Positions 25,413 to 48,140 of a stretch of DNA of 64,000 nucleotides are shown here, piece by piece. Under the pieces are notes generated by a model. That model saw only the letters and a list, made by a program, of their open reading frames with translations, ran no database searches and had not been told where the DNA came from. The first letter of the stretch is position 1. Each line of letters begins with the position of its first letter. A program made the position numbers and the translations under genes. The DNA comes from a virus. Where the stretch lies: the IMG/VR virus record IMGVR_UViG_3300035701_000002; one strand, given 5' to 3'.

Positions 25413-25498
25413 GGTCTCCGTAGAGGTATTCAAGTCCGGCTGGACCTTACCGGGCCTAAACATGACGAGGAAGACTCGGGGGCGGAAAGGACGCCCGC

Positions 25499-29995: not shown

Positions 29996-30895
29996 TCAGA
30001 TCCCGAGGAACCGGCGGGGCGTGAGGGCGCCGCGGCCGACGGAAGGGCCGAACGACGACCTGATGCCGACGCCGAAGCGGGACTGCTTGAGGCCGCGGAT
30101 GACCTTGACGGTCTCCTTGGCCGCGACCACGAACTCGGAGAAGCGGGACTGGGCGTCGCCCGCCATGCTCTGGTACTTCGAGCTCTTCTCCAGGTCGAGG
30201 GACACCCCGCCGATGGAGTACGAGAACTCGTCCAGGACCCAGTTCAGGGTGAGTGCCGATATGGAGTGCACCATAGCGCCGGTCAGGAGGAGAGTCCGCC
30301 AGTTCCTGTGCTGCGAGATCAGCATGTCGAGCGTCTCGTAGAAGGTCTGGGGAGGGTACATGTTGATCGCGTCGTTCGAGACGCGGAGGAACTCGAGGAG
30401 CTCGTAGTCCTCCCAGATGTACCCGAAGACGCGCGTGAACTGGTTGACCGTCTCCTCGCCCGCCGGGGGCGCGAAGTGATAGTTCCTGGCCGGGTTATTG
30501 TCGCGGAGCATGATCCGGAGCCCGCGCACGAGGTCGTACTCGACCGGGGTGATCCCGCAGATCGTGACGACCTGAGTGGCATTGTCGACGATGGCGAACT
30601 CCTGTACCACCTGGGCCTGGGGCGAGTTCACGTACTCGTTGAAGTACCATCGCACCCGGTATTTCCCGATGTTCGCGTCGATCGGGACGATGAAGGAGGC
30701 ATAATACTCCCCGACGGCCGGGTTGACCGGCTGGCGAGGGGCCGGCGGGAGGGTGACCTCGACCCCGGTGGTGAAGTCGTACAGGGCGTACGATATCTTC
30801 GCCGCGTTCTTCGGCGACCCGTCCTTGGACTTCAGGAAGATGTTGAGGCCGTTGGCCCGGGAGAGCTCTTGGCCGCGGCGGAATGTGACGGACAT
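29996..30895 (-). CDS. hypothetical protein
   Basis: 299-aa ORF. Confidence 0.5.
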   Translation of the reverse strand: MSVTFRRGQELSRANGLNIFLKSKDGSPKNAAKISYALYDFTTGVEVTLPPAPRQPVNPAVGEYYASFIVPIDANIGKYRVRWYFNEYVNSPQAQVVQEFAIVDNATQVVTICGITPVEYDLVRGLRIMLRDNNPARNYHFAPPAGEETVNQFTRVFGYIWEDYELLEFLRVSNDAINMYPPQTFYETLDMLISQHRNWRTLLLTGAMVHSISALTLNWVLDEFSYSIGGVSLDLEKSSKYQSMAGDAQSRFSEFVVAAKETVKVIRGLKQSRFGVGIRSSFGPSVGRGALTPRRFLGI

Positions 30896-30903
30896 GATGG
30901 ACC

Positions 30904-31173
30904 CTACTTGCCGCCCTTCATGTGCTTGAACATCTCGACGTCCTCAAGGCGGTCGTCTGCCTCGCCCTTGGTCGGGTAGCACCCGCCAGACCAGTCCGGA
31001 TTCTTCTCGGACTTGACACAGTACCCCTTCCCCGGAGTCTTCCTGATGACGCCCGTTTCCTCTCTCTGGGACAGGACCTCACGACCCCCGTAGTCCGGAC
31101 GATCGGAGAGAGGCTGGGTGAGGCCGGCAGCCACGCGGGCGGCGATCCGGAGGAGGCTCATGAAAACGGGCAT
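30904..31173 (-). CDS. hypothetical small protein
   Basis: 89-aa ORF divergent from the ligase gene. Confidence 0.4.
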   Translation of the reverse strand: MPVFMSLLRIAARVAAGLTQPLSDRPDYGGREVLSQREETGVIRKTPGKGYCVKSEKNPDWSGGCYPTKGEADDRLEDVEMFKHMKGGK

Positions 31174-31223: not shown

Positions 31224-31868
31224 ATGACGGAGACACGCCCATCGGTCCCCTCGTGGTGGCTCTTCCCCTTCAAGCCCGTCAGGGTCCGCGAGTCCATCTT
31301 CGAGTCCATCGACCCTCAGAAGTACATCCTCGAGAAGAAGTACGACGGATGGAGGGCGCTCCTGATCGCCGGTCCGGTGCCGACCCTGTGGACCAGGGAG
31401 AAGACCAGGATCGACATGCCGGACAACCTTCGCCCGCAGATCGAGTCCCTAAACCTCCCCGACGGGACGGTCCTGGACGGGGAGATCTGGACTCCGGAGA
31501 AGAGAGGGGCCTGGCGGCACAACAAGGGAGTGGACTGCAGGCTAACGCTCTGGGACGCAATCCGGTCCGGGAAGCGCGACCTTTCGGCCCTCCCGCTCGA
31601 GGCGCGGCGGACGGAGCTCGAGTCCCTCCTCGGCGCCGGGACCCGGGACGTCGGGATCGTCGAGTGGCTGCCCGCCGACGCGGCGTCGTACGCGACGGTC
31701 AGGGCGGAGGCCGAGTCATTTCGCGAGCAGGCTCAGTCCAGGTCGGGCTTCATCCACGGCGCCGTTCTGAAGAGGAGAGGGTCTCCTCGACGAGATCACG
31801 CTGTCCGGTGCGTCGAGCACGCAGACTGGCTGAAGATTGTCGTGGACGGGATGAACTCCGGCGCCTAG
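31224..31868 (+). CDS. minimal ATP-dependent DNA/RNA ligase-like nucleotidyltransferase (adenylation domain only)
   Basis: Motif I EKKYDGWRALL (KxDGxR), motif III VLDGEIW, motif V HGAVLKRR. AGGGGG lies 5 nt upstream of the ATG. Only 214 aa, with no room for an OB domain. Its 3' end overlaps the UGD ORF convergently. Confidence 0.6.
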   Translation: MTETRPSVPSWWLFPFKPVRVRESIFESIDPQKYILEKKYDGWRALLIAGPVPTLWTREKTRIDMPDNLRPQIESLNLPDGTVLDGEIWTPEKRGAWRHNKGVDCRLTLWDAIRSGKRDLSALPLEARRTELESLLGAGTRDVGIVEWLPADAASYATVRAEAESFREQAQSRSGFIHGAVLKRRGSPRRDHAVRCVEHADWLKIVVDGMNSGA

Positions 31869-33197
31869 GTCGCGGGAGCTGCGCCGGCGTCCGCGGCATA
31901 TGCTGTAGAAACGCAACCCGAAAGAGTCGAAGTCAGACTGATCCCAGACATTCCTTCCGTCGAAGACGGTGATGTCGGGGGACTGCTTCTTGATCTCCTC
32001 GATGTCCGGACTCCTGTACTGGCGCCATTCGGTGCACAGGACGAGAGCGTCCGCACCGGAGGCGGACGCGTATATGTCGTCGCAGTAGGACACCCTGTCG
32101 CCGTACAGGGAGCGGAACTGCTCCATGGCCTGCGGATCGTGGACCGTGACGGACGCGCCGTGCTTCAGCATCTCGTCCACGAGCGGGATGCTCGGTGAAT
32201 CCCGGACGTCGTCGGTCTCCGCCTTGAAGGAGAGGCCCCATACGGTGATGCGCCTCCCTCGAAGATTTCCGAGGCACTTTCGGACAAGCCTGGGGAGGAG
32301 CCTCCTCTGGAAGTCGTTCGCCTCCTTCGCGGCCCTAACGACCCTAAGGTCGTGGCCGGCGGACTCCGCCATGTGGAGGAGGGCCGAGACGTCCTTCGGG
32401 AGGCAGGATCCGCCGTAGCCCGGACCGGGATAGAGGTACTGGGGGCCGATGCGGGAGTCCGCGCCGACGCTCTCGCGGACCTTGTTAATGTCCGCCCCGA
32501 CGGACATGGCGAAGTTCGAGAGCTCGTTCATGAACGAGATTCGGGTGGCGAGGATGGAGTTCGAGGCGTACTTCACGAGCTCCGAAGACTCCGGATCCAT
32601 GACGAAGAACTTCGACGTTCCGGCGAACGGCTTATAGAGCCTGAGGAGGAGGTCCCGGGCGACCGGGCTCTCAGTGCCGATCACGACCCGGTCCGGACGC
32701 ATGAAGTCCTCGCATGCCGTCCCCTCGCGCAGGAACTCCGGGTTGGACGCGACGTGCGCCCACCCTCCCTCGACGTACGAGGCGAGTATTCTGGCGAATG
32801 TCCTTGTCGTGCCGACCGGGACGGTGCTCTTGATGACCACGACCTTCCCGGTATCCCCGGTCTTCCTCATGACCTCGCCGACCGTCCGGGCGGAAGACAT
32901 GACCTGCGACAGGTCGGCAGACCCGTCGTTGGCCTGGGGGGTACCGACGGCGACGAACACGATGTCGGCCATCTCGACGGCCATCGCGACGTCGGAAGTA
33001 AAGTCGATACGGCCCTCCTCAAGGTTGTTCTCGAGAAGGCGGTCCAGGCCGGGCTCGTAGATGGGGAGTACCCCGTCCTTCAGAGAGCGAACCTTGTCCA
33101 CGTTCGTGTCAGCGCACACGACCTCGTTGCCGAATTCGGAAAGGCCGATTCCGGTCACGAGTCCGACGTACCCAGCCCCTAGGATCGTGATTTTCAT
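31716..33197 (-). CDS. ugd: UDP-glucose 6-dehydrogenase
   Basis: N-terminal NAD-binding motif MKITILGAGYVGLVTG, catalytic region GGSCLPKD, and a UDP-binding C-terminal domain. A C-terminal tail of about 50 aa extends past the usual end. ATG at 33197 verified. Confidence 0.9.
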   Translation of the reverse strand: MKITILGAGYVGLVTGIGLSEFGNEVVCADTNVDKVRSLKDGVLPIYEPGLDRLLENNLEEGRIDFTSDVAMAVEMADIVFVAVGTPQANDGSADLSQVMSSARTVGEVMRKTGDTGKVVVIKSTVPVGTTRTFARILASYVEGGWAHVASNPEFLREGTACEDFMRPDRVVIGTESPVARDLLLRLYKPFAGTSKFFVMDPESSELVKYASNSILATRISFMNELSNFAMSVGADINKVRESVGADSRIGPQYLYPGPGYGGSCLPKDVSALLHMAESAGHDLRVVRAAKEANDFQRRLLPRLVRKCLGNLRGRRITVWGLSFKAETDDVRDSPSIPLVDEMLKHGASVTVHDPQAMEQFRSLYGDRVSYCDDIYASASGADALVLCTEWRQYRSPDIEEIKKQSPDITVFDGRNVWDQSDFDSFGLRFYSICRGRRRSSRDLGAGVHPVHDNLQPVCVLDAPDSVISSRRPSPLQNGAVDEARPGLSLLAK

Positions 33198-34744
33198 TTT
33201 GCCACCGGTTTGTCGTTCGAACGGAGGATGAAGCCCGGAAGGGCTCCCTGCCCCATGGAGTGCTCGTACCGGACCCCGGGGGACCCCGGATTGAACGGGA
33301 TTGCGAGCTTCGAGCGGACCTCGCTCTCCACCTGGTCGCGGAGGACCACTATCTGCTCTCCGCTCAGGTGGTCGGTGAAGACATAAGAGTGGTACCCGCC
33401 GGAAGGGTCACCCTTGTAGTAGTCCGCGATCTCGCAGTAGTCCACGTCGTGGGAGTGGAGACGGTCCCCGGACTTCTTGCACGTGTATGTCCAGACGTTC
33501 GGCATGTCCGGATGTGGGACCGCCTCGTCGTAGTACGGAGTTCCGGGATACGTGGTTATGGTGGTGCAGTCGAAGTCGTCCGGGGCCTGCTGTATGAGCC
33601 AGTCGCGGACATCCAGTATCGACTTCTCGGACTCCCCAGGGTGGCCGACGCTCATCAGGGCCTTGACCTTCAGCCCGTACTTCCTGGAGATCTCGACGAC
33701 CTTGTTGTTGTCCTCGAGCGTGGCCCTCTTGTTTATGTTCTCGAGGATGCGAGGGTTGGCGGCCTCGAACCCGCACAGGATCCACCTGAAGCCCGCGCGA
33801 TACATGGACCGGGCCTGCTCCTCTGTGAAGAGCTCGGACTTCACAAAGCCGCGGAGGCGGAACTCGACGCCGAGCCTGGACTGAAGGTCCGCTATGGCGT
33901 CCATGAGCTCAACGATGCTCTTGTTCACGTTGAGCTCATCGTCATACATCATGAAGCCGGTGAAGCCGTACGTCTTGTGGAGGTACTCGATCTCGCCGAC
34001 GATCGACTCGGTGGAGCGAGTCCTGATGCGGCGGAGCATGTTCGAGTTCCGGCCGCCACAGAAGCCGCACCCGAACGGACACCCGAGCTGGGCGATGAGG
34101 GACGTGGCCGGGAACCCCTCGATCGCATATTTGTAGGAGGGGACGTCGACGAGATGGCGGGCGGGGTACGGCGTAGACTCGTACTCCGCGTTTGTCATGA
34201 ACAGGCCGCCCTTCGGGACGTCCGCGTCCACGACCTTCGGAGCTCCGTCCCGCATGGCCTCGAATATGGCGCTCTCGCCGTCCCCCGAGACGAGAACGTC
34301 GAATATGGATTCGAGCTTCTCGAGCGCCTTGTGGGCGCGCCCCGCCCGCCCGGCCTTCTGCTCGAGCTTCACGGCCGAATGGACCAGGGTGACGTGCGGC
34401 CCCCCGGCTATGATCCTGATGTCCGGACGGACCGACCTCAGGCGCTCGGCGATCTTCACCGCAGCCGGGAGCTGGGGGGTCGTGGCCGTTATCGCGACGA
34501 AACGCGACTCCGTGCGGGCGGCCTGAATGGCGGCCACCTCGACGAAATTCTCTATGCCGGACAGGTCAAGGAACTCGACCGGGTGTCCGGCCTTCTCGAG
34601 GGAGGCCGCAACCTTCAGAATCCCGAGGCTCATGAATACGCGCTCGTCCAGAAGGAACAGGGAGGGCGGAGTGACGAGGAGGACTCTGTCGTTCGGCACC
34701 GCACGGGCCGGAGTAGGACGAATGAGGTTGCCTGCCGGAATCAT
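33194..34744 (-). CDS. cobalamin-binding (class B) radical SAM enzyme
   Basis: N-terminal B12-binding-like Rossmann region (RVLLVTPPSLF...). Canonical radical-SAM cluster CPFGCGFC (CxxxCxxC). The start was refined to MIPAGNL (ATGA overlap with the upstream GT stop), so the listed N-terminal 18 aa are probably not translated. Confidence 0.8.
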   Translation of the reverse strand: MIPAGNLIRPTPARAVPNDRVLLVTPPSLFLLDERVFMSLGILKVAASLEKAGHPVEFLDLSGIENFVEVAAIQAARTESRFVAITATTPQLPAAVKIAERLRSVRPDIRIIAGGPHVTLVHSAVKLEQKAGRAGRAHKALEKLESIFDVLVSGDGESAIFEAMRDGAPKVVDADVPKGGLFMTNAEYESTPYPARHLVDVPSYKYAIEGFPATSLIAQLGCPFGCGFCGGRNSNMLRRIRTRSTESIVGEIEYLHKTYGFTGFMMYDDELNVNKSIVELMDAIADLQSRLGVEFRLRGFVKSELFTEEQARSMYRAGFRWILCGFEAANPRILENINKRATLEDNNKVVEISRKYGLKVKALMSVGHPGESEKSILDVRDWLIQQAPDDFDCTTITTYPGTPYYDEAVPHPDMPNVWTYTCKKSGDRLHSHDVDYCEIADYYKGDPSGGYHSYVFTDHLSGEQIVVLRDQVESEVRSKLAIPFNPGSPGVRYEHSMGQGALPGFILRSNDKPVAK

Positions 34745-35853
34745 CTCTTGCGTTTCTCCAGAATGATCTCCTCGAGACGACCCGCAAGGACTGACCACCT
34801 GTGGGCGTTCGCGAGCTTCAGGGACTTCTCCCTGACAGAGTTCTGGAAGACCTTGTCCTGAAGGCCCTTCACAACAAACTCAGCGAACTCGGGCAGCCTG
34901 TCCCTGACGGGGGCGCGAACGGCCGGTATGTGATCCCCGTATATCTGTCCTAGCGAGTCGACCGCCGATATGACCGGTATGGCGCCGGCCGCGCAGGCCT
35001 CCATGGTGGTGACGGAGAACCCCTCCGTGAACCGGATAGTGTCGCACGGATATGCGAGGACCTCGGCCTCGGACATCTCCCTGGCCATCTGCTTTCGGCT
35101 GACGGATCCGACCCTCGCTATGTCGAGGCCGGCCATGCGCCCCATGGAGAGGTCTATATACCTGGCCCTCCTGCCGAATTCGATGAAGTCGGGGATGTCG
35201 TGATGCTCGACAGGGATGAACCTGGAGACCCAGCCGTCCATGTTGTAGAAAACGCGCAGGTGGGCGTGAGGGACGGCCCTCTTGATGGACGGCCAGGCCT
35301 GCATGAGGAGGTGGAGCCCCCTGTCCGGGGACGAAGCGTAGACGACGCGACCGGGGACCTTGAGGGCAGGGTCGTACTGGTTCGGGTCGCACCCGTTCGG
35401 GAGGACGGTCCACTTGTGGGGCGAGGGAGTGTGGGAGCGGATGTACTCCATGTGGGACTGGGACGGGCTCGTGTACACGTCCACGAAGTCGTCGAACCCC
35501 GGACGGCAGTAGCCAAAGTCGTTGAGCTGCTGGTTCACCAGCCGCAGGACGCCGGGGGCGACGGCGCGGAGAACGTCGGGCTCGTTCCACGCGCAGACGG
35601 CGTCATATCCGTAGGACTCGCCGGCGAGGTTTCCGAACTCGCGGAGCGGTACGCCGTCGAACTCCGGGGCGTTGGGGCCCTGGACGAACAGGGACACCTG
35701 GTGGCCCATCCGGGCCATCTCCCTTGCAAAGCATATGCACGAGAGCTCAGAGCCCGTCAGGCCGCGAGGGGAGTCCCAGAGGGTGTTGAAGTCGATGAGG
35801 CGGCCGGCGAGGGTGAAAGGACCGTATACGAAGGCTATTTTTAGTCCTTGCAT
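34741..35853 (-). CDS. GT4-family glycosyltransferase (paralog A)
   Basis: EX7E motif FTEGFSVTTMEACAAG. Start refined to MQGLKIAF by alignment with the paralog at 36619..37764 (MRIAFLL...RGLTGSE...MGH.V.LF). GGTG lies 6 nt upstream. Confidence 0.75.
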   Translation of the reverse strand: MQGLKIAFVYGPFTLAGRLIDFNTLWDSPRGLTGSELSCICFAREMARMGHQVSLFVQGPNAPEFDGVPLREFGNLAGESYGYDAVCAWNEPDVLRAVAPGVLRLVNQQLNDFGYCRPGFDDFVDVYTSPSQSHMEYIRSHTPSPHKWTVLPNGCDPNQYDPALKVPGRVVYASSPDRGLHLLMQAWPSIKRAVPHAHLRVFYNMDGWVSRFIPVEHHDIPDFIEFGRRARYIDLSMGRMAGLDIARVGSVSRKQMAREMSEAEVLAYPCDTIRFTEGFSVTTMEACAAGAIPVISAVDSLGQIYGDHIPAVRAPVRDRLPEFAEFVVKGLQDKVFQNSVREKSLKLANAHRWSVLAGRLEEIILEKRKR

Positions 35854-35882
35854 GACCCACACCTTTTGTGATACGGCATTCG

Positions 35883-36668
35883 ATGGTCCAAAATCTGTGC
35901 AAGATACACGGGGTAACGGCCTTCCGAGTTCGTCATCGCCTGAAGCGCGGGTCACGCAGTCTCGTAAAAGAGTGCTTGCTCTGTGAAGCGGAAAGGGCGA
36001 AGGCACACTACCAAGGCCATAAAGCGGAGCGGAGCCAAGACAACCGGCGACGCTATCAGGAAAACAGAGACGCTGTTCGTGCAAGAACGAAGACCTATGC
36101 GGCTAGAATTCGCTATGAGGCCCTTCAAAGATACTCAGATGTTGAACCCCGATGCGCACACTGCGGAGAAGACAAGGTCGAGTCCCTGGGCCTGGACCAT
36201 ATAGTCAACAACGGATCGGACCACAGACGCAGAGAGGGACTCTTCAGTGGTCAGTCGACATATCTATGGGCGCGAAGGAACGACTATCCAACAATATTCC
36301 AAGTGCTATGCCATAACTGCAACATTCGAAAACAACTGGATAGAATCACCTCGATTTCGCCAAGTGCTCAGTATAGAGCGAGGTTGAAAACAGAAGTGCT
36401 GAGTCACTACGCGAGTCCGATAAAGTGTGCGCTTTGTAAAGAAAACGATCTGTCCGTCATGACAATCGACCACGTCAACGGTGGCGGGAATATTCATCGG
36501 AAGACTGCCTGGGGCAACAAAAGCAATTTTTATCTATGGTTCAAGAGAAACGAATTCCCATCGGGTTTCCGTGTCCTTTGCTTCAACCACAATCTAGGTA
36601 TCAGGTGTAGCGGTATGCCTACCCTGTCCAGTCCACCCTTGGTAGACCCTCGGCCCCTCTGGTTTTGA
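35883..36668 (+). CDS. tandem-HNH endonuclease (low-GC island inserted between the two GT4 paralogs)
   Basis: Two modules: CAHCGEDKVESLGLDHIVNNG...VLCHNCN and CALCKENDLSVMTIDHVNGGG...VLCFNHN. About 50% GC. The listed start is GTG at 35868; the first ATG is at 35883. Confidence 0.75.
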   Translation: MVQNLCKIHGVTAFRVRHRLKRGSRSLVKECLLCEAERAKAHYQGHKAERSQDNRRRYQENRDAVRARTKTYAARIRYEALQRYSDVEPRCAHCGEDKVESLGLDHIVNNGSDHRRREGLFSGQSTYLWARRNDYPTIFQVLCHNCNIRKQLDRITSISPSAQYRARLKTEVLSHYASPIKCALCKENDLSVMTIDHVNGGGNIHRKTAWGNKSNFYLWFKRNEFPSGFRVLCFNHNLGIRCSGMPTLSSPPLVDPRPLWF

Positions 36669-37764
36669 GACAGCGCTCGAGGTCCGACGCCAGGACCGAC
36701 CACTCGAACTTCTTGGCGTGAGAGACGCACCGCTCGGACACCTCGGCGCGGTAGGGCTCGTCTGTCAGAAGACGAACCATCTTCTGGAAGAACTCCTGGC
36801 GGTGATCCTTGAAGGGAGGAGGGACGCACTCCGCCGCGGACCCCCAGAGCTCCCCGAACGCGTCGTCCGTGCAGATCACCGGGGCGGTCCCGGACGCGCA
36901 GGCTTCCAGGACGACGACTCCGAAGGTCTCCGTGAAGTAGACCGCGTCCAGAGGGTAGGCGAGGACGCTCGAAGTCCTCATCTCCTCCTCCATCCGGTCG
37001 CGGCTCACGGACTTGTGAGCGTGGACGCCCATCCCGGACATGCGGCGGATCCCCTCCAGTATGTACCTGGAGCGGTTCCCGAGCTCGAGGTGGACCGGGG
37101 TTATGTACGCCGGCCCGGGGACGTACTCGACGGCCATGTGGTTGATGGAGTGGAAGTCGTAGAAGACGTGGAGCTCGGCGTTCGGGACAGCCCTCTTCAG
37201 GGCGGGGAACATCGAGAGCATCCAGTGAAAACCGCGGTCCAGGGACGAAGCCCAGATGATCTTCCCCGGGACCTTGACGCCGGGGCTGAACTTCACGATG
37301 TCGACGCCGTTGTACAGGACCCTCCACCTGTCGCGGGGGAACCCCGTCTCGTGGACGATCCGCCTCGCATGCGTGTGCGACAGTGGGGCGATCATGTCCA
37401 CGTGGCCCTCCCACCCGGGCGGGCTCGTGCTGAAGCCGTTGCACTGATGGTTCAGGAAGCGGAAAGTGCCGGGACTGGCGAGGAAGAGAGGGTCGGCCAT
37501 AGTCCACCCGCATGCCGCGTCCCATGACTGCTTGCAGTACACGCTCTCCCACTCCGAATAGGGAGAGCACTTCGCCATGCCGAACAAGCCGGGGGCCGAG
37601 AAATTGGAGAAAAGGGTCACGTCGTGGCCCATGGAGGCCATGGCCTCGGCGAACTTGAAGTAAGCTATCTCGGAGCCCGTCAGCCCTCTCTGGGACGTCC
37701 ATATGGAGGCGGGGTCGAACGGGACTCTCACCCCCTTCGGGTGCAGGAGGAAGGCGATCCTCAT
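36619..37764 (-). CDS. GT4-family glycosyltransferase (paralog B)
   Basis: EX7E motif FTETFGVVVLEACASG. Start refined to MRIAFLL, with an ATGA overlap to the upstream stop. Confidence 0.75.
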   Translation of the reverse strand: MRIAFLLHPKGVRVPFDPASIWTSQRGLTGSEIAYFKFAEAMASMGHDVTLFSNFSAPGLFGMAKCSPYSEWESVYCKQSWDAACGWTMADPLFLASPGTFRFLNHQCNGFSTSPPGWEGHVDMIAPLSHTHARRIVHETGFPRDRWRVLYNGVDIVKFSPGVKVPGKIIWASSLDRGFHWMLSMFPALKRAVPNAELHVFYDFHSINHMAVEYVPGPAYITPVHLELGNRSRYILEGIRRMSGMGVHAHKSVSRDRMEEEMRTSSVLAYPLDAVYFTETFGVVVLEACASGTAPVICTDDAFGELWGSAAECVPPPFKDHRQEFFQKMVRLLTDEPYRAEVSERCVSHAKKFEWSVLASDLERCLKTRGAEGLPRVDWTG

Positions 37765-39071
37765 CTTCCGGCAAGCCGTACGAGCTCGACGTGGTTCATC
37801 GGGGGTGAGGCGTGCCTTGCATGGCTTCCGGACGGGACCTCCTCGGAGGTGACCAGGACGTCGCACCTGATGCTGGAGGCCTTGGACGAGTCCAGGACGT
37901 CGATGAAGTCGAACACGCCCTCGGAGTACGGGGCGGTGCAGGGCTTGTAGAAGGAGACCCTATGGCCGAGGGCCGCGAGGGCCTTGGCCAGCGGCATGGT
38001 GTGGGACTCGGGAGACGAGTCGTAGAACGCGAAGCTGTACCCAGGCCATATCGTCGGCGCAGTGGCGGCGGCCTCCGTACAGACGATGCCCTGCCCAGGA
38101 ACGTCCTTGGCAACAGAGTGGGTCATGACATAGCAGTCCTTAACCCAGAACCCGGCCTTCCGGAAATTCGCGACGGTAGACCAGACGGTTGGGGCGATGA
38201 GGTGAGCTCTGGGCTTGCGAGCGAGCCAGGTGTGACCTTCATTGTACCAGACCCACGGGTGAGCCCACGAGACGAACTGACCTCTGTACCAAGCGCCGTG
38301 CGGGGCTACGAGGAGGGCCTTCCCGTCACCGCGGAGAAGCTTCCGGGCGGGAACCAGGAGGTCGGCCACAGGGTCGATGATGTGCTCGTAGGTGTGGGCG
38401 CAAGTAAACGCGTCGAACGAGCTGTTCGGAAGGGCGTCCGGGGCGTCCCGGAAGAAAGAGCATAGATGGCGGGCCCCGGTCCCATACTCGGCGGCCTTCG
38501 CGTTGGCGATGGACACGGAGTTGTGGCTCATGTCGACGCCAGTGACCTTGAAGCCGGCAAGACCCCAGCGGTTCGTCATGGTCCCATCGATGCATCCGAA
38601 GTCGACTAGGGAACACCCGGCGGGGAGCCTGTCCTGGATCCACCTCGTGCACTCAGAGAGCTGCCCGGTGAGGGGGAGAGGGAGCGGGTTGGCTATCTCG
38701 TTCGTGAGAGGGACGCCGTTCGGATCCATCGGCGTGTTCACGGAGTCCGAATGGACCCTGCTCTTCATCCATTCCATGGTGGAGCGAGTGATGGAGAGAG
38801 CCTTCTCGGTGGCGGCGGTGTGGCGGACCCTGTATGGGGCGTTCTCGAGGAAGCTGATCGCCGACAGAATCTCGTCGTTGATCATGAACTCGTGCCACAC
38901 GGAGATAACCATGGACTGGAGCTGCCCGTCGGACGTCCGGAGGGGGAGGGACTCGACGTCGAACAACGACGGGATACCCCAGGCCTGGTGGTGGGGAGTC
39001 TCGACAGCCACGGGGAAGTCGGAGTCGGACGGGATTCCGGTGAAGGCCGGAGAGGGAGGGTTCCAGTTCAT
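37761..39071 (-). CDS. class I SAM-dependent methyltransferase fused to a GT-B-like half domain
   Basis: Motif I LVDFGCIDG, post-I GVDMS, motif II FDAFTC, motif III LRGDGKALLV. The C-terminal ~90 aa (LAKALAALGHRVSFY...DVLVTSEE) resemble the N-terminal half of a GT-B fold. Confidence 0.65.
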   Translation of the reverse strand: MNWNPPSPAFTGIPSDSDFPVAVETPHHQAWGIPSLFDVESLPLRTSDGQLQSMVISVWHEFMINDEILSAISFLENAPYRVRHTAATEKALSITRSTMEWMKSRVHSDSVNTPMDPNGVPLTNEIANPLPLPLTGQLSECTRWIQDRLPAGCSLVDFGCIDGTMTNRWGLAGFKVTGVDMSHNSVSIANAKAAEYGTGARHLCSFFRDAPDALPNSSFDAFTCAHTYEHIIDPVADLLVPARKLLRGDGKALLVAPHGAWYRGQFVSWAHPWVWYNEGHTWLARKPRAHLIAPTVWSTVANFRKAGFWVKDCYVMTHSVAKDVPGQGIVCTEAAATAPTIWPGYSFAFYDSSPESHTMPLAKALAALGHRVSFYKPCTAPYSEGVFDFIDVLDSSKASSIRCDVLVTSEEVPSGSHARHASPPMNHVELVRLAGR

Positions 39072-40069
39072 TTCCTGAAGCTTTCTTTGAACCATCTAGC
39101 AGTCATGCGAATGCCGTCCACATATCCGACTTTCGGGTTCCAGTCCAGCATGGCCCTGGCCCTCGAGATGTCGGGGCACCTCTGCCTTGGATCGTCCTGC
39201 GGAAGAGGGCGGAACTCGACGGTCGCGGCCGACCTCGGAGAGTCGTACGGCCTGCCGGAGTCCAGGTCCAGGATGGCGGTCGCCACGTCCTCCGCCACGG
39301 AGAGGATCGACCTCTCGTCGGGATTTCCGACGTTGACGACCGGGATGGGGTGCGGTGAGAACGCCGCGCGGCGCTCGACGGTTATCTCGACCTCCATGAG
39401 CCTCAGGAGGGCCTCGACCGTGTCGGACACGAAGCAGAAGCTCCTGGTCTGACCGCCCGATCCGTAGACCGTCATGGGCTCACCGCGCATGGCCTGGAGC
39501 ATGAAGTTCGGGATGAGGCGTCCGTCCTCGAAGGCCATTCTCGGCCCGTACGTGTTGAAGAGGCGCGCGATGCGGACGTCGGTCCCGTACTGCTGGGCCC
39601 AGGACGTGGCGAGGCTCTCGCCGACCCTCTTTCCCTCGTCGTAGCAGGCGCGGATCCCGGTGGGGTTCACGTGGCCCCAGTATGTCTCCGGCTGCGGATG
39701 GACGGAAGGGTCGCCGTAGACTTCGGAGGTGGACGTGATGAGCAGGCGCGCACCAGTGTCCCTAGCGCACTCGAGGGCGTTCAGAGTGCCGATGGTCGCC
39801 GTCTTGATGGTCCTGACCGGGTTGCGCTGATAGTGGACCGGGCTTGCGGGGCAAGCCAGGTGGTAGATCCTGTCGCACTCGATGTGCCACGGATCGCACA
39901 CGTCGTGGCGCAGGAACTCGAACCTCGGGTTCCCGAGAAGGTGAAGGACGTTCGCCTTGCTCGACGTGAACAGGTTGTCCACGCACACGACGTCGTGGCC
40001 GAGCTCGACAAGGCTGTCGCAAAGGTGGGATCCGATGAACCCGGACCCTCCCGTAACTACGACCTTCAC
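39068..40069 (-). CDS. uxs: UDP-glucuronate decarboxylase (UDP-xylose synthase), SDR family
   Basis: VVVTGGSGFIGSHL ... NPRFEFLRHDV ... IYHLACPASPVHYQRNPVRTIKT...GTLN ... SEVYGDP..HPQPETYWG.VNP.G.R.CYDEGKR ... FNTYGPRM ... DDPRQRCPDIS. Near-diagnostic by eye for UXS. Confidence 0.85.
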   Translation of the reverse strand: MKVVVTGGSGFIGSHLCDSLVELGHDVVCVDNLFTSSKANVLHLLGNPRFEFLRHDVCDPWHIECDRIYHLACPASPVHYQRNPVRTIKTATIGTLNALECARDTGARLLITSTSEVYGDPSVHPQPETYWGHVNPTGIRACYDEGKRVGESLATSWAQQYGTDVRIARLFNTYGPRMAFEDGRLIPNFMLQAMRGEPMTVYGSGGQTRSFCFVSDTVEALLRLMEVEITVERRAAFSPHPIPVVNVGNPDERSILSVAEDVATAILDLDSGRPYDSPRSAATVEFRPLPQDDPRQRCPDISRARAMLDWNPKVGYVDGIRMTARWFKESFRK

Positions 40070-42453
40070 ATGGCCCCCTTATACGGTGGCATCACGTCGC
40101 GCTGGACGTCCTCCATCGTCTTCCTGAACATCGTGACCCACTCGTCCGCGAGAGAGTCCCATCCGAAGTTCTCGGTCGCGTACTTCTGAAGCTCAGACCG
40201 GTCGGAGTCGTCCGTGCGCTGCATGGCGGCAACGACCCCGTCGATGAACCGGTTCTGATAGTCCAGGGTCAGCCAGTCCCCGGGGACCATCGTCCCGCGC
40301 GGCCCGACGGTCTCGTTGAGGGCGGCTATCGGGGACGTGACCATCCGGAGCCCGGCGGCTTGGGCCTCCATGGCCGAGATGCAGCTCGTCTCCGTGAACC
40401 AAGTCGGGTAGGCCCAGACGCCGCTCTTCAGGTACTCGTCCGCGAGGACGTCCTGGGCAACGCGCCCGTGGAAGACGACGCCGGCGGTCTCGTAATCGTG
40501 GAGCATCTTCTTGAGGTTGTTGATGAGCCCCATCTGGGAGGCGTCAGCGCAGGCCTCCCACGTCTGGAATCCGTAGAAGATGTGGAGCTCGGCCCCCGGC
40601 ACCCTCTCCCTGACGCGGGGCCACACGCAGATGGCGACCTGCATCCCGCGGTCGGGGCTCGAGCTGTAGACGGCCCTCTTCGGGTCGCGCGGAGGGGACT
40701 TGACGAACCTTTCGAGATCTATGCCGTTCCGGGTCACGAGGACCTGGTCCGGATGAACGACCTGGTGGTGGTTCAGGAAATATCCGCGGTGCCACTGGCT
40801 GAGGGTCAAGAATTTGTCTATCCGGATGGCGCGAGCGTGGGTCAGCTCCCCGCCGCAGTGGACGTCGTGAACCCAGCAGAGCCTGGCCTTGGAGGACACG
40901 TTGTGGGAGTCGTCGACGGCGGACGGCCGACGGGAAGTGACGAGGACGTCGCAGTCCAGGTTGCCGTACTTACCGTGGTGGATGTATTCGACGCCCGAGA
41001 AGCTGCCCTCGATGCCAGGGCACTCGCCGAAGACCCGCACTCGGTGGCCCCTGCCGGCGAGCCTCTTGGACATCTCGATGACGGCGGTCTCGGACCCCCC
41101 GATCCCCTTCTTGGAGGCAGTCTCCGGATTCCAGGGCTCCACGGCGTTCCCGACATAGAAAACGATGTCCAGGACGTCCCCATGACCGTCGGGGCGCGAC
41201 CCGGACGGGGCCTGGAACCTGTTCTTCGAAACGACGGAGTCGACGTGCGCCCTGACGTCCGGAGACAGGTCCCCTGTGTCGACAAGGGCCGTGAGGGCCG
41301 ACGACAGCTTGTCCTTGGCCAGGTGCTTCTCGAACACCTTCTTGTTCACGAGGAGGTGCGGATCGTCGGGCTTCGCCCTCAGCCCTGTGTTGACGCTCTC
41401 TAGCGCCTCGGCGACGCGGCCCGTGTTGCTGAGGGCGACGTTGAGGAACTTGTGTACCTCGAGGTTCCTGTCGAACGGGTTGATGAAGAGGGATGTGTTC
41501 GTAGGGGGGAGCGAAAGGCCAAGGCGCGCGAAGTGGGCGCACCGCTCCCAGTTCCTGTACGTGTCCTTGCCCCTCTGGGCCAGAAAGTAGAAGCACTTGG
41601 CGAGGGTGAAGTAAGCCTCACCCCACTTCTCATGGATGATGGTGGCCCTGCTGGCCCACGGGATGGCGTCGTCGTAGGCCCCGCGGCCGATGTGATGGTC
41701 GGCGATCTTCAGGCAGGCGAGATACTTCTCATCGTCCCATCCGGAGCGGTCGACGTACTTGCTCAGGAACTTCACGGCATTGTCGAAGTCACCGTTGTTC
41801 CCGTACTCGAGACCGAGGTAGTACAGGTGCCGGGCGTCGGAGTCACCCTCATCCTCGTACTGCTCTTTGAGGATCCGGAGGTTCCGGCCGGGTTCGACCT
41901 TCTTGCGGGACAGGTCGCGACGGTGGACGATCTTGACCCTCTCGGTCCTCTGCCTGAGGTCTCCTGCGAGCGGGACGAGGACCTCATGGACCCTCCCGAC
42001 CCACCTGAAGCCGGCCTTCGGGGAGACGAGCCTCTCGCGGTCGTGGAGGAGGGTGACGTTCCCATGCTCGTCATGGGCATACTCGTACGGCATCATGACC
42101 ATGGAAGGTCCGCCGTTCCGGGCGCGATCGTACTCCTCCACGAGGGACGCCAAGTGCTCCGCACCGGCAACCTCGTCGTCCCCGTCGATCCACATGGTCC
42201 ATGGCTGCGTGGCGAGGCTGAAGCTCTTCTGCCGTGCGTCCGCGAACGACCTCATCAGGCCGCTAGGATGATTGCACCCCGTGTAGACCTCGAACTTGTC
42301 GGCGAAGCGGCGAGCGACGTCCTGAGAGGAGTCGGTTGATCCAGTGTCGACGACGACGATCTCGGCAACGTAGGGCCGGACGGAGCTCAGGCATTTTTCG
42401 AGCTGGGCGATCTCGTCGCGGACGATGAGGCAGACGGATATGGGCGCTGTCAC
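40066..42453 (-). CDS. multidomain glycosyltransferase: N-terminal GT2 - TPR-like repeats - C-terminal GT4
   Basis: GT2 region: SVCLIVRDE...VVDTGSTD...WIDGDD. TPR-like helical repeats lie in the middle. GT4 region: EX7E FTETSCISAMEAQAAG. ATGA overlap with uxs. Confidence 0.8.
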   Translation of the reverse strand: MTAPISVCLIVRDEIAQLEKCLSSVRPYVAEIVVVDTGSTDSSQDVARRFADKFEVYTGCNHPSGLMRSFADARQKSFSLATQPWTMWIDGDDEVAGAEHLASLVEEYDRARNGGPSMVMMPYEYAHDEHGNVTLLHDRERLVSPKAGFRWVGRVHEVLVPLAGDLRQRTERVKIVHRRDLSRKKVEPGRNLRILKEQYEDEGDSDARHLYYLGLEYGNNGDFDNAVKFLSKYVDRSGWDDEKYLACLKIADHHIGRGAYDDAIPWASRATIIHEKWGEAYFTLAKCFYFLAQRGKDTYRNWERCAHFARLGLSLPPTNTSLFINPFDRNLEVHKFLNVALSNTGRVAEALESVNTGLRAKPDDPHLLVNKKVFEKHLAKDKLSSALTALVDTGDLSPDVRAHVDSVVSKNRFQAPSGSRPDGHGDVLDIVFYVGNAVEPWNPETASKKGIGGSETAVIEMSKRLAGRGHRVRVFGECPGIEGSFSGVEYIHHGKYGNLDCDVLVTSRRPSAVDDSHNVSSKARLCWVHDVHCGGELTHARAIRIDKFLTLSQWHRGYFLNHHQVVHPDQVLVTRNGIDLERFVKSPPRDPKRAVYSSSPDRGMQVAICVWPRVRERVPGAELHIFYGFQTWEACADASQMGLINNLKKMLHDYETAGVVFHGRVAQDVLADEYLKSGVWAYPTWFTETSCISAMEAQAAGLRMVTSPIAALNETVGPRGTMVPGDWLTLDYQNRFIDGVVAAMQRTDDSDRSELQKYATENFGWDSLADEWVTMFRKTMEDVQRDVMPPYKGAM

Positions 42454-42489
42454 GAGCCCACTCTACCCGCCTGCCCGTCCGGGAAGAGA

Positions 42490-43404
42490 TCAGGCCATCA
42501 GCAGGTAGGAGGCATAAGCGTCGACGGACTGACCGCGGAAGCTCGCGTTGGCGTTCGGAGCGGCGGTGAACGCCGCCGAGATCGCCGCATGGGCGGTCTC
42601 CATCGCCGCCTTCGCGCCGGCCGCGCCGGTCCAGTACGACTGAGCGCCGAGGCCCTGACCGGTCTCCGATCCGCACCAGAGGCCGTAGTTCCTGCCCGAC
42701 TGGCTCGCATAGTCGAACCACTTCTGGAAGGTGGCGATCTGCTGGGCCGAGTTGTTGTAGTAGCATCCGACGGACACGAAGTCCGCGCAGTCCATCAGGT
42801 TCAGGCCTTCGAGCTGGGTCGGGCCTCCGCCGTAGGAGAAGCTCAGGGCGGCGGACGCGGGGTCGGCGAGCCACTGGCTGGTGAAGCAGCCGACGGGCAC
42901 GTTCAGGACCGCCCTGGCGGCCTTCATGAGGTCGCACAGGCCCTGGGGATCGGCGGCCGTATAGCCGGGGACGGTCCAGTACTCGACGTCGAGCATGAGG
43001 CCGTCGAAGGCCGCAGCGTCGGTCGTGGTGCTGGCGGCGTCCGCGAGGGCGTTGTACTGGGCGACGTGGCGGACGATGTTGTTCATCACCCACTGCTGGT
43101 TCTGGCCCCAGTCCGTGTTCCCGGCCAGGGCCATCACGCGAATCCCGGATGCGTGCGCGTAGTGGACGAACTTCGTGACCGCCTGGTAGTTGGCGGTCGA
43201 CCAGTTGCCGCCCCCGAGGCGCCCCCAGACGTCGAGGAACACGACGTTGACGCCGTTCGAGGAGCAGAAGCTGAGGAGGCTCTGGACCTTCGCGTCGGTC
43301 GCGAGCGGATCTCCGGCCGATCCGGCGGCTCCGCACCACACGAACATGGAGCGGTCGAGGTTGCTGTTCGGGGGGACAGGGATTGCTACGGCTGAAACGG
43401 TCAT
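42490..43404 (-). CDS. TIM-barrel glycoside hydrolase-like protein (GH18/GH114-like motif DGLMLDVEYW)
   Basis: 304-aa ORF with alternating beta-alpha pattern and a D-x-x-x-x-D-x-E motif. It is the first gene of the sugar operon. Confidence 0.45.
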   Translation of the reverse strand: MTVSAVAIPVPPNSNLDRSMFVWCGAAGSAGDPLATDAKVQSLLSFCSSNGVNVVFLDVWGRLGGGNWSTANYQAVTKFVHYAHASGIRVMALAGNTDWGQNQQWVMNNIVRHVAQYNALADAASTTTDAAAFDGLMLDVEYWTVPGYTAADPQGLCDLMKAARAVLNVPVGCFTSQWLADPASAALSFSYGGGPTQLEGLNLMDCADFVSVGCYYNNSAQQIATFQKWFDYASQSGRNYGLWCGSETGQGLGAQSYWTGAAGAKAAMETAHAAISAAFTAAPNANASFRGQSVDAYASYLLMA

Positions 43405-43453: not shown

Positions 43454-44422
43454 TCAGAACTGGACGTATTCGAACCCGCCGACGGCGGTGGACGCGGTCG
43501 CCGCCACGGGGCGCTCGACGATCCAGATCAGATCCGGGCCCGGGACCTGGAGCCAGACCTGGAACGAGTGGTCGAGCTGGCCGGCCGCGACGTGGACGAC
43601 GGTCTGCCCGATCTGGAGCTGCGGGAGGTTCGCATTCGACGGATCGCCCGACCGGTTCAGGTTCGCCTGACCGGAGACGACGGTGGCCCCGGCGGAGAAG
43701 GAAATGATGCAGCAGGTGAGGCCCGACGGCACATAGTGGTGAGCCCAGAACGTCTGGTTGTCGCTCGCGGCGATGGAGCCCCAGACGGACCCGCCGGCGG
43801 CGGTCGCGGTCCAGACCTGGATCGTCCCGACGTTCCCGCCGACCGATCCGACGGACGCGACCACGATGCTCTCTATGTATGCGATGTCCGTGGCCACGGT
43901 GTTGACGGCCGCCGTGCCGTTCATGGTGACTGTCTCGGACTTGAGGACGAAGGCGGCGGTCAGGTAGTTGATCGTGACGGTCCGGGCCCCCGTGCCGGCG
44001 GACGTATCGTTCGCGCTCGTCGAGTTGACACTGCGCTGGGCGTTCGCGCCCTGAGGCGCGTAAGCCGTCGCTCGTATAGCCTTTCCTGACGTGGCGGACG
44101 TGCCGACGTAGCCCTGGACTCTCCCGTAGGAGCTCACGGACGTGCTCGGGACTCCGACGGAGAACTGCTGGAACGCGTCTGCGCCGCCGAGCGGTACGCC
44201 CTGATGGGCGGCGACCACGGCGTTCAGAGTGGTCTGGTCGCCGCCGGATAGGACGTCCTTGAACAGGATGGCGCAGTTGTTCGAGGCGGTGCTGGTGCTG
44301 ATGGAGTCGAGGGCCGTGACGATCGACGACGCACGGATCTCCACCGTGAGCCGGTCCGTCGCCACCTTCCCGTTCGGAAAGGCGGTGGATATTGTGTAGT
44401 TATAGGTCGTGGGGGTCGGCAT
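43454..44422 (-). CDS. fibre-associated structural protein (Thr/Ser/Ala-rich beta protein)
   Basis: 322-aa ORF directly downstream of the collagen-like fibre genes. Confidence 0.5.
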   Translation of the reverse strand: MPTPTTYNYTISTAFPNGKVATDRLTVEIRASSIVTALDSISTSTASNNCAILFKDVLSGGDQTTLNAVVAAHQGVPLGGADAFQQFSVGVPSTSVSSYGRVQGYVGTSATSGKAIRATAYAPQGANAQRSVNSTSANDTSAGTGARTVTINYLTAAFVLKSETVTMNGTAAVNTVATDIAYIESIVVASVGSVGGNVGTIQVWTATAAGGSVWGSIAASDNQTFWAHHYVPSGLTCCIISFSAGATVVSGQANLNRSGDPSNANLPQLQIGQTVVHVAAGQLDHSFQVWLQVPGPDLIWIVERPVAATASTAVGGFEYVQF

Positions 44423-47400: not shown

Positions 47401-48140
47401 GTCGCGCCCGCCCCGACGGTGACGAAGCTGACCTCGACCTGGTCGATTCCGATCTCGGGCTTGACCGGAGAGGCAGACGGCGTACCTGTGACCACGCTCA
47501 CAGTCCCGTTGGTGTCCGCAACGATTACGTCTATCCTGTCGAACGTCGGGTCCGCGACAGATAGGGTGACCTGGGTCGGCTGGGAGGTGTAGTAGGTGCC
47601 GCCTATGACGTACTTGAGAAGAGTGACGTTGTACGTGAGGCCGGTGTCCCACGAGGCTCCGCCGTCGTAGAGGCCGTCCTGGAGCGGAGGGCCGACGATC
47701 GTGATGTCGGCCTGAGTCGGGTTGGCGGGGTTGGCGGTTGCACGGACGATAGGACCGACGAAGTTGAGGGCGGACTTTCCGGGCCCGGTTATCCCGGTCC
47801 CCTCGTCCTTGACCGTGATACCGCTGTTGGTCGGCCCGGTGGCGCCAGTCGGGCCCACCGTAGTGAGAACCCCGGTGTCCGTCATGTAGACGTTCCACGG
47901 GGTTCCGCTCGGGGACAGGATGGTGAGTGGAGGGGCAGAGCCGGTCGGGTAGGATCCGACGTACGGGACGAACCCCTTCTGGGCCATCGCGATGTCGAGA
48001 TCCGGCTTCAGGGCGTCGTTCGACAGCGTGATGTCGACGTAGACGACCGTAGCCGAAGCGCCGATGACCAACGACGGGTCGATGACACCCTTGAGGAATG
48101 CCAGGTCTATCGAGTTGGACTGATAGCGGAAGGTGCTCAT
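44460..48140 (-). CDS. collagen-like fibre protein (1226 aa): ~420-aa N-terminal domain, ~600 aa of G-X-Y repeats, two BclA/C1q-like C-terminal domains
   Basis: Uninterrupted [12 protein letters not shown] triplets. The C-terminal beta-rich segments resemble the Bacillus BclA C-terminal TNF/C1q-like domain. ATGA overlap with the 2989-aa gene. Confidence 0.85.
45080..46865. repeat. collagen G-X-Y triplet-coding repeat region of the 1226-aa gene (approximate bounds)
   Basis: Periodic GGN-CCN/ACN-... 9-nt periodicity over about 1.8 kb. Confidence 0.7.

Follow-up and report, generated by a model that had tools for sequence, protein, structure and literature searches.

In the 64,000-nucleotide stretch of viral DNA analysed here (IMG/VR record IMGVR_UViG_3300035701_000002; hereafter the window), positions 31716–43404 carry a cassette of glycosyltransferase (GT), nucleotide-sugar and sugar-tailoring genes. 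We propose that this cassette directs the cytoplasmic O-glycosylation of virion proteins, probably collagen-like fibres, and that it forms part of the late structural module in a myovirus of jumbo or huge size. Our confidence in this reading, which is drawn from the encoded sequences and their arrangement, is evenly balanced between acceptance and doubt.

According to the proposed scheme, the nucleotide-sugar dehydrogenase UGD would oxidise host UDP-glucose to UDP-glucuronate, and the UDP-xylose synthase UXS would decarboxylate the latter to UDP-xylose. The TPR domain of a GT2-TPR-GT4 fusion protein would hold a phage structural protein while its GT2 domain adds the first sugar to Ser/Thr; the likeliest acceptor would be the Gly-X-Thr collagen-like fibres, whose genes lie just upstream and are apparently transcribed together with the cassette. 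Extension of the chain with xylose and/or glucuronate could then fall to the fused GT4 domain and to two separate GT4 paralogues (GT4a and GT4b), an S-adenosylmethionine (SAM) methyltransferase could O-methylate the glycan, and a B12 radical-SAM enzyme might C-methylate or deoxygenate one of the sugars.

A protein acceptor is suggested by the specific resemblance of the GT2 domain to protein-directed enzymes, by the TPR domain, by the lack of any membrane, flippase or polymerase component, by the position within a block of structural genes, and by the unrelated podovirus MW202524.1, in which a full-length homologue of the fusion comes right after the major capsid gene, with further GTs and methyltransferases behind it. 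Among possible acceptors we favour the collagen-like fibres, because their genes are adjacent and apparently co-transcribed with the cassette, and because the larger fibre protein (2989 aa) carries Thr at the Y position in 53% of its G-X-Y triplets, as in BclA. BclA forms the exosporium filaments of the Bacillus cereus group, in which Gly-X-Thr repeats bear O-linked methylated oligosaccharides. The phage protein has 2709 residues in G-X-Y runs, and a single run extends over 756 uninterrupted triplets.

Encoded enzymes and gene order

Eight of the nine cassette genes are on the minus strand and one, HNH, is on the plus strand; their order is glycosidase-like TIM-barrel protein, GT2-TPR-GT4 fusion, UXS, SAM methyltransferase, GT4a, HNH, GT4b, B12 radical-SAM enzyme and UGD; the refined gene limits (Table 1) were taken from gene calls on near-identical public contigs. 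In DNA of 65% GC, the GC content at third codon positions (GC3) of the minus-strand genes is 0.84–0.91, a strong coding signal, and we therefore regard them as genuine coding sequences. Start and stop codons overlap by 4 nt at five junctions (GTGA between fusion and UXS; ATGA between UXS and methyltransferase, methyltransferase and GT4a, GT4b and radical-SAM, and radical-SAM and UGD). The fusion gene begins 36 nt downstream of the glycosidase-like gene, without overlap. Further upstream on the minus strand, gaps of 49 nt and 37 nt separate the glycosidase-like gene from a 322-aa gene and the latter from the first collagen-like gene, and an ATGA overlap links the two collagen-like genes to each other.

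A first-pass annotation of this DNA had described nine minus-strand genes packed by ATGA/GTGA overlaps. The five overlaps were confirmed, whereas one of the nine genes lies on the plus strand and the glycosidase-like gene is not overlapped. The gene identities and order that it gave essentially hold good, since the coordinates are right, the domain matches are significant and the coding signal is present. A scan for promoters and terminators returned no promoter-like site and a single terminator-like site, on the plus strand, fewer than in shuffled sequence; a consensus scan, which has low power, gave no minus-strand terminator-like site between 29 and 45 kb. This outcome is compatible with co-transcription of the cassette with the fibre genes but counts as no evidence of it. 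A tRNA scan found none.

All three parts of the fusion are recognised by Pfam, namely Glycos_transf_2 (9e-14), TPR_14 (24.3 bits; cut-off 23.5) and Glyco_trans_1_4 (7e-9, 36.5 bits; cut-off 27). As a single sequence it matches GmaR (7.9e-16) and SunS (3.6e-7) in the PDB, and a profile of the fusion family strengthens these matches to 2.4e-29 for GmaR and 2e-17 for SunS and adds ThuS (7e-12), with the next GT2 (GalT1) at 2e-5 and the remaining GT2 structures at 1e-5 or worse. The TPR region of the same profile matches designed TPR proteins at 2e-21. The DGDD motif of the GT2 domain is present in all 120 top homologues, and E688 and E696 of the GT4 domain (EX7E) are invariant across the aligned family. 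GmaR is the flagellin N-acetylglucosamine transferase of Listeria, in which a GT domain is followed by TPRs proposed to recognise flagellin (PMC9638930). On this evidence the GT2 domain of the fusion appears to be of the GmaR/SunS type, a protein-directed class. Both GT4 paralogues are related to the GT4 domain of the fusion and exceed the Glyco_trans_1_4 cut-off (34.6 bits for GT4a, 29.0 bits for GT4b); identity is 37% between GT4a and GT4b (E = 1e-81) and 26% between GT4a and the fused domain.

UXS aligns to human UXS1 (4gll, 2b69) over residues 2–330 with E = 1.7e-104 (352.8 bits), against 123 bits (1e-34) for the next short-chain dehydrogenase/reductase (SDR), and keeps all of the NAD-binding and catalytic motifs GGSGFIGSH, STSEVYG, YDEGKR and GPRM in register with the human enzyme. 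By homology it is a genuine UDP-glucuronate decarboxylase, that is, a UDP-xylose synthase. UGD contains the three UDPG_MGDP_dh domains PF03721, PF00984 and PF03720 (1e-58, 8e-35 and 2e-33, far over the cut-offs) and the catalytic motif GGSCLPKD, and it passes the nucleotide-sugar dehydrogenase subfamily model TIGR03026 (436.6 bits; cut-off 189.8). Its best PDB matches are bacterial UDP-glucose dehydrogenases (1e-119 to 1e-111), and all top matches (to 1e-97) stand ahead of GDP-mannose and UDP-ManNAc dehydrogenases. The family homology marks it as a genuine nucleotide-sugar 6-dehydrogenase. We infer UDP-glucose as the substrate and do not regard it as certified, because the best equivalog, TuaD (1.5e-131, 439.6 bits), stays below its cut-off of 700, as does AglM (341 against 670). 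A C-terminal extension of about 55 aa brings the UGD gene into a 153-nt overlap (31716–31868) with a converging ligase-like open reading frame (ORF). Together, UGD and UXS would provide the two-step route UDP-Glc → UDP-GlcA → UDP-Xyl, for which the homology is strong. This route had been named in the first-pass annotation, and the profile and PDB searches make its family assignments firm, with neither enzyme falling into an unrelated SDR or dehydrogenase family.

In the SAM methyltransferase, Pfam families Methyltransf_11, _12, _23 and _25 cover residues 154–281 (class I SAM fold), and the N-terminal ~145 aa carry no assignment. Its C-terminus matches the first ~57 residues of the GT4 domain of the fusion (37% identity, E = 4e-10), and the protein aligns to the methyltransferase insert in the 1102-aa four-domain fusion of L011 (related loci are given as L numbers). 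With its GT4 N-terminal remnant, the separate gene looks like a piece cut from a GT2-TPR-methyltransferase-GT4 gene; the separate form is common to the window, L015, L019 and L020. The "GT-B" domain previously assigned to the methyltransferase is this fragment, and the cassette holds four intact GT domains and one GT4 remnant instead of the five domains counted earlier.

The radical-SAM enzyme exceeds the cut-offs for Radical_SAM (87.8 bits against 29.5) and B12-binding (51.2 bits against 32.1) and has a CxxxCxxC motif (CPFGCGFC). Its best PDB match is AprD4, an aminoglycoside-sugar diol-dehydratase (7.6e-15), and all 21 NCBIfam matches fall far under their cut-offs (the best, BchE, at 98.9 bits against 481), which leaves the functional subfamily unassigned. 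The role of a sugar C-methylase or dehydratase is plausible for this protein.

Two genes within the limits of the cassette appear to stand apart from the pathway. The HNH gene matches phrog_2255 (HNH endonuclease, E = 5.9e-13) and has a GC content of 51% and GC3 of 0.55, compared with 63–64% and 0.85 in the neighbouring genes; no HNH gene lies between GT4a and GT4b in L015, where the genes are 89–90% identical, or in L017 and L019. Because of the deviant composition and the absence even from the ~90% identical L015, we consider it a recent mobile insertion, as had been supposed. The 304-aa glycosidase-like protein is predicted to fold as a (beta/alpha)8 glycoside-hydrolase barrel with a predicted local distance difference test (pLDDT) score of 94, closest to Cwp19 and PgaB and not to GH18. 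It scores 19.9 bits against the GH18 cut-off of 29.6, and its motif D134-G-L-M-L-D139-V-E141 has Met for the middle Asp of DxxDxDxE. In L011/L037 a patatin-like protein occupies its place. The slot thus seems to hold variable lytic-type enzymes, and for this reason we do not count it in the biosynthetic pathway; the protein is probably an envelope-degrading enzyme. Of the earlier reading of this gene, the TIM-barrel fold is upheld and a role in the pathway is doubtful.

Viral origin and flanking genes

Judged from synteny and composition, the cassette DNA is viral. The proteins flanking the operon are syntenic with the structural modules of Tunturi_5, a cultured 309-kb Tunturiibacter phage, and of LR745208.1, an uncultured huge phage of 485 kb (Table 1), and the operon agrees in GC (63–64%) and in GC3 with the phage structural genes on either side. 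An identical UXS sequence occurs on 10 contigs, the longest of 160,407 bp, and in six fetched loci from six different samples the operon is 99.1–99.9% identical to that of the window. A megablast search with the 13.5-kb region gave zero matches among 50,697 phage records, and hence no close sequenced relative is found there.

It is extremely improbable that the region is instead a bacterial lipopolysaccharide (LPS) or capsule locus, or a chimeric assembly that joins such a locus to phage DNA. The cassette enzymes have cellular homologues, and every match in the genome collection is a contig of a metagenome-assembled genome (MAG) with a bacterial label. However, these labels come from many phyla, several of the contigs are phage-sized, and no isolate genome carries the cassette; the MAG contigs are probably mis-binned phage DNA. 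A non-viral origin also conflicts with the independent assembly of the same arrangement in the six samples, with the shared composition, and with orthologous cassettes that lie between the same phage genes on contigs of 200–445 kb and 33–57% GC, so that this possibility is already largely refuted. The earlier view that the cassette is virus-encoded and not a host LPS or capsule locus is thereby borne out, the lack of membrane and export components adding to the evidence.

Upstream of the cassette, the 1226-aa fibre protein matches many PHROG tail-fibre and collagen-like families and has 531 residues in G-X-Y runs, again with Thr dominant at Y; a Pfam search with the isolated fibre domains gave BclA_C as the sole match, below threshold (E = 0.029). 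If triple-helical at ~0.29 nm per residue, the 2989-aa protein would imply a fibre of more than 0.6 micrometre. On the 160-kb contig, which is otherwise 99% identical, the collagen version has 2725 aa, and the repeat number thus varies between strains. In the 322-aa protein, the N-terminal ~75 aa alone are conserved in L011, L019, L021 and L028, and the C-terminal part is variable or multiplied (L042, L043). This conservation pattern is typical of fibres, and the protein is probably fibre-associated or receptor-binding.

Downstream, the cassette ends at the converging ligase-like ORF and the connector gene in all seven relatives with enough flanking sequence (L012, L013, L019, L028, L037, L042 and L046), and the ligase-like ORF is found at the same position and strand in L011. 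This ORF, convergent on the cassette and inside the structural module, comprises solely the nucleotidyltransferase domain of ATP-dependent DNA ligases and capping enzymes. The connector homologue, whose counterpart gp319 in Tunturi_5 is annotated as 'head-tail connector protein', is 66–82% identical among cassette-bearing relatives. In LR745208.1 (L009, 3846–6217) it is split into two matching segments ~1.4 kb apart, which suggests an intron, intein or endonuclease insertion.

Several features of the wider module may be mentioned. In the 1698-aa tail sheath homologue, the N- and C-terminal thirds alone are conserved with gp326 and LR745208.1, implying a very large inserted middle. Two GIY-YIG homing endonucleases, which have paralogues at other positions in L011, add to the HNH gene and make for a dense population of mobile endonucleases in the structural module of the window. 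A gene placed between the homologues of the minor tail and the tail terminator encodes a 351-aa protein with a full-length match (E = 2.9e-69) to PF25216 'Volactin', the family of a Haloferax actin homologue; the gene occupies the same place in LR745208.1 (55% identical) and in L011/L037 (67%), and its product has no PDB sequence match. The haloarchaeal virus that this match might bring to mind was rejected, since the predicted proteins are not acidic (pI spread 4–10).

Table 1. Positions of the cassette genes and of flanking features in the window.
Feature	Positions	Strand	Length (aa)	Remarks
UGD	31716–33197	−	493
B12 radical-SAM enzyme	33194–34744	−	516
GT4b	34741–35853	−	370
HNH gene	35883–36668	+	261	two HNH-like repeats
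GT4a	36619–37764	−	381
SAM methyltransferase	37761–39071	−	436
UXS	39068–40069	−	333
GT2-TPR-GT4 fusion	40066–42453	−	795
Glycosidase-like protein	42490–43404	−	304
Ser/Thr/Ala/Gly-rich low-charge protein	43454–44422	−	322	phrog_8198, E = 8e-7
Second collagen-like fibre protein	44460–48140	−	1226	globular N-terminal, internal and C-terminal domains; phrog_6320, 1.8e-139
Giant collagen-like fibre protein	48137–57106	−	2989	Pfam Collagen, 1235 bits; just upstream, candidate substrate
Ligase-like nucleotidyltransferase ORF	31224–31868	+	214	ATP-dependent DNA ligase: NCBIfam 8.7e-12, PHROG 5.4e-13
Small conserved ORF	30904–31173		89
Head-tail connector homologue	29996–30895	−	299	Tunturi_5 gp319, 29% (E = 3e-36); LR745208.1, 40–45%
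Minor tail homologue	27685–29112			Tunturi_5 gp322; 37% over 96% of protein in LR745208.1
GIY-YIG homing endonuclease	26770–27657	−		phrog_314, 9e-24
Volactin-like protein	24408–25463	−	351	PF25216
Tail terminator homologue	21253–22524			Tunturi_5 gp324
Tail sheath homologue	15545–20641	−	1698	Tunturi_5 gp326
GIY-YIG homing endonuclease	14573–15496	−		phrog_314, 1.4e-30
Virion structural protein homologue	3689–4387			Tunturi_5 gp329

Relatives in huge phages and the choice of acceptor

The cassette was compared across 80 metagenome loci and four targeted look-ups. At least 870 homologues of the fusion protein were found at E ≤ 1e-10, on contigs of up to 445 kb. The top 120 are 43–100% identical to it, and most of them align near full length, versions with a methyltransferase insert or an intein aligning in two blocks. 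Plain GT2-TPR-GT4 proteins make up 94 of the 120, another 17 (~1100 aa) have a methyltransferase between TPR and GT4, an arrangement also seen in L011/L037, L013 and L042, and nine are longer, seven of these with intein domains. The intein-bearing homologues (P0019, P0027, P0091, P0098, P0101, P0115 and P0117; PF14528, PF13403, PF14890) are unusual for a glycosyltransferase, and the inteins suggest an important, strongly conserved gene in these phages. Contigs with the cassette (L012–L093) span 33–69% GC, and their fusion proteins are 29–99% identical to that of the window. Since so wide a span of composition goes with a conserved fusion, the core appears to have long resided in phages of very different hosts.

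In most of the 80 loci the constant core is the fusion gene followed by a GT4b-like gene, and the accessory genes vary. In 15 loci or more, the gene next after the fusion is a true UXS orthologue (48–81% identical); UGD is present in five loci and the radical-SAM gene in seven. Elsewhere, C-methyltransferase domains (Methyltransf_13/14), a second SDR or GFO_IDH_MocA oxidoreductases are found instead. L017 has the order fusion-UXS-SDR-GT4a-GT4b-radical-SAM-UGD without HNH. L019, a 202-kb contig of 47% GC, has fusion-UXS-methyltransferase-GT4a-GT4b-radical-SAM, followed by the ligase-like gene and the connector, and lacks UGD. L013 combines a four-domain fusion, UXS and two GT4 genes with a 493-aa UGD (56% identical) that overlaps the ligase-like ORF by the same 153 nt, and in L011/L037 (44% GC) the cassette is reduced to the four-domain fusion and one GT4. 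From this constancy of the core and variation of the sugar-supply and tailoring genes, it follows that the glycan coat is probably a diversifying feature of the virion surface, serving adhesion, shielding or stability. The first-pass annotation had called a nucleotide-sugar and multi-GT operon rare in a tailed-phage genome; this cassette recurs in dozens of related huge-phage contigs.

The position between fibre genes and connector is kept in relatives of 43–57% GC. Immediately upstream of the cassette, giant collagen-like ORFs with Gly-X-Thr repeats are found in L012, L013, L014, L019, L028, L042, L075, L144 and L145. In 13 loci the fusion is 50% or more identical and the upstream flank measures 6 kb or more, and 8 of these have such an ORF in this place.

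Several points weigh against the proposed glycosylation of virion proteins, and the collagen acceptor is its weakest step. About one third of the close relatives, and most of the distant ones, have no collagen-like gene within 6–10 kb upstream, so that collagen would not be a universal acceptor; another virion protein, or several, may be modified. Our choice of acceptor rests on the neighbouring genes and on the GmaR and SunS homology, and with 35.5 bits against a cut-off of 350 for the SunS equivalog TIGR04195, the fusion is a relative of SunS and not an orthologue. Several relatives have UXS without UGD, or neither enzyme. Finally, Iyer et al. 2021 see similar clusters in jumbo cyanophages as modifying host surface polysaccharides (PMC7824862).

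Remodelling of the host surface (LPS, capsule or other envelope glycans), which would block superinfection or the adsorption of progeny, is the main alternative, although we think it unlikely. The same authors interpret in this way the polymorphic clusters of jumbo phages that combine nucleoside-diphosphate (NDP)-sugar enzymes with multiple GTs; exopolysaccharide and O-antigen loci typically contain UGD, UXS and GT4 enzymes, UGD and UXS standing beside Wzy and Wzc in the Yong-DA record, for example, and the gene content varies among relatives as it does in O-antigen loci. On the other hand, no operon protein has a transmembrane-like segment (maximum 19-residue hydropathy ≤1.6), no membrane initiating transferase is encoded, and Pfam families of flippases, polymerases, polyprenyl-phosphate transferases and exporters were found neither here nor in L012, L013, L144 and L145, so that these loci do not have the make-up of a Wzx/Wzy- or ABC-dependent surface polysaccharide locus. 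The core enzyme is of the protein-directed GmaR/SunS type with TPRs, and the cassette lies beside fibre genes in the late structural module and not among early or host-takeover genes. 'Aphanizomenon phage Yong-DA' (ON073792.1, L007) was set aside as a phage precedent; its 42.6-kb circular record is annotated almost wholly with polysaccharide synthesis (Wzy, Wzc, export protein, UGD, UXS, GDP-mannose dehydrogenase) and may not be a phage.

Two further products can be weighed by the same evidence. Glycosylation of phage DNA, in which the GTs would place a xylose/glucuronate glycan on hydroxymethylated bases as a defence against host nucleases, has well-known parallels in phage GTs that glucosylate or hypermodify DNA (T-even phages, PMC9614988; Pyle et al. 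2024 via PMC12619734), and UGD homologues occur in hypermodified-DNA phages such as SP-15 and among the DNA-metabolism genes of Pseudomonas phage QdP_Psa3. We nevertheless consider it quite improbable here: no hydroxymethylase, thymidylate-synthase-like or other base-modification gene was found in the window or beside the cassettes of relatives, the setting is a structural module, and the TPRs and the GmaR/SunS affinity point to a protein acceptor. Still less probable is a glycosylated peptide or small molecule, that is, a glycocin-like ribosomally synthesised and post-translationally modified peptide (RiPP) or secreted metabolite made by a SunS-like GT and a B12 radical-SAM enzyme. The GT2 domain is related to the SunS/ThuS peptide S-glycosyltransferases, class B radical-SAM methylases are common in RiPP tailoring (the matches include ApyD and rSAM_ocin_1), and small conserved ORFs such as the 89-aa ORF lie near, but the cassette has no recognisable precursor peptide, leader peptidase or transporter, every RiPP equivalog score is far under its cut-off, the radical-SAM gene is present in a minority of cassettes, and three extra GT4 domains together with UGD and UXS are atypical for glycocins.

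Comparison with known glycosylation systems

Among known systems, the proposed glycosylation of virion proteins is functionally closest to the cassettes of mycobacteriophages and then to the machineries of giant viruses. Mycobacteriophages Che8, Corndog (cluster O) and Myrna have tandem GTs with an O-methyltransferase (Freeman et al. 2023 via PMC11600133, PMC12619734), and in cluster O three glycosyltransferase genes and an O-methyltransferase modify capsid and tail-tube proteins (PMC11600133, PMC12619734). The likeness lies in tandem GTs and a methyltransferase in a tailed phage, and in the cytoplasmic modification of structural proteins of the same phage, which for the window cassette is proposed. 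The systems seem analogous and not orthologous, since a tblastn search with the fusion against the phage records used above found no Mycobacterium phage at E ≤ 1e-5. UGD/UXS supply, the B12 radical-SAM enzyme and the GT2-TPR-GT4 fusion are extra features of the window cassette, and the acceptors differ, being capsid and tail-tube C-termini in mycobacteriophages as against the proposed collagen-like fibre.

In giant viruses, PBCV-1 A064R is a GT-GT-methyltransferase, and Mimivirus L230 is a collagen hydroxylase/glucosyltransferase acting on a collagen-like protein (PMC9614988). Common to these machineries and the cassette are virus-encoded, host-independent, soluble multi-domain GT/methyltransferase enzymes for virion proteins, tied to collagen-like proteins (PMC9614988), a role that is proposed in the present case. 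The hosts here, however, are prokaryotic, the enzymes are GmaR/SunS-type GT2 and GT4 in place of GT34-like or novel families, and there is no lysyl hydroxylase. The first-pass annotation held that the known viral parallels infect eukaryotes; this is contradicted by the cluster O mycobacteriophages (PMC11600133, PMC12619734) and by the jumbo cyanophages, which carry NDP-sugar/GT clusters (PMC7824862). The cyanophage clusters resemble the cassette as polymorphic clusters of nucleotide-sugar enzymes and paralogous GTs in large phages (PMC7824862), but they are assigned to host polysaccharide and are untied to fibre or connector genes, whereas the window cassette is built round a GT2-TPR core and keeps to one place within the structural module.

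GmaR, SunS and ThuS, the closest solved GT2 relatives, share with the fusion a GT-A domain followed by a TPR or helical part, and act on protein or peptide in the cytoplasm, GmaR on a filament subunit (PMC9638930). The phage fusion lacks the GmaR antirepressor domain and has a GT4 domain instead, with a methyltransferase also inserted in the 17 homologues noted above.

The resemblance to BclA comprises long Gly-X-Thr repeats capped by a beta-sandwich head, genes for sugar synthesis and GTs nearby, and a methylated glycan, which in the phage is predicted. The phage proteins are far longer, the giant one having 2989 aa with its 756 uninterrupted triplets, and their glycosylation is putative. From the mycobacteriophage and giant-virus systems the window cassette is set apart by its enzyme families, by its own UDP-sugar supply and radical-SAM tailoring, and by the conserved link to giant collagen-like fibres in a clade of huge phages. 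In the openly searchable literature, which excludes subscription journals, we found no description of this cassette and nothing linking a phage with UDP-xylose or UDP-glucuronate decarboxylase.

A broader hypothesis can be put forward tentatively, with less confidence than the glycosylation proposal itself. A widespread, uncultivated clade of huge phages (contigs of up to 445 kb, 33–69% GC) may build Gly-X-Thr collagen-like hairs hundreds of nanometres long that are O-glycosylated in the host cytoplasm by conserved GT2-TPR-(methyltransferase)-GT4 enzymes of the GmaR/SunS type, aided by a variable toolkit resembling that of O-antigen loci (UGD/UXS, C- and O-methylases, radical-SAM enzymes, extra SDRs). 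If this is true, such hairs would be to bacteriophages what the glycosylated BclA nap is to Bacillus spores and the fibrils are to Mimivirus.

In the searchable literature, glycosylation of the virion of a tailed phage is demonstrated only for mycobacteriophages, where it alters antibody recognition. The soluble cytoplasmic enzymes of the cassette (a protein glycosyltransferase, UGD/UXS and a possible sugar C-methylase) could serve glyco-engineering in bacteria. The proposal makes testable what purpose the surface glycans of phages serve (adhesion, stability, or a shield against defences or grazers), by what means a GT2-TPR enzyme recognises a repetitive protein as its substrate, and why the toolkit has diversified between related phages. 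If it is correct, self-glycosylation would be a conserved trait across a large clade of environmental huge phages, provided with its own nucleotide-sugar supply and tied to extraordinarily long collagen-like fibres.

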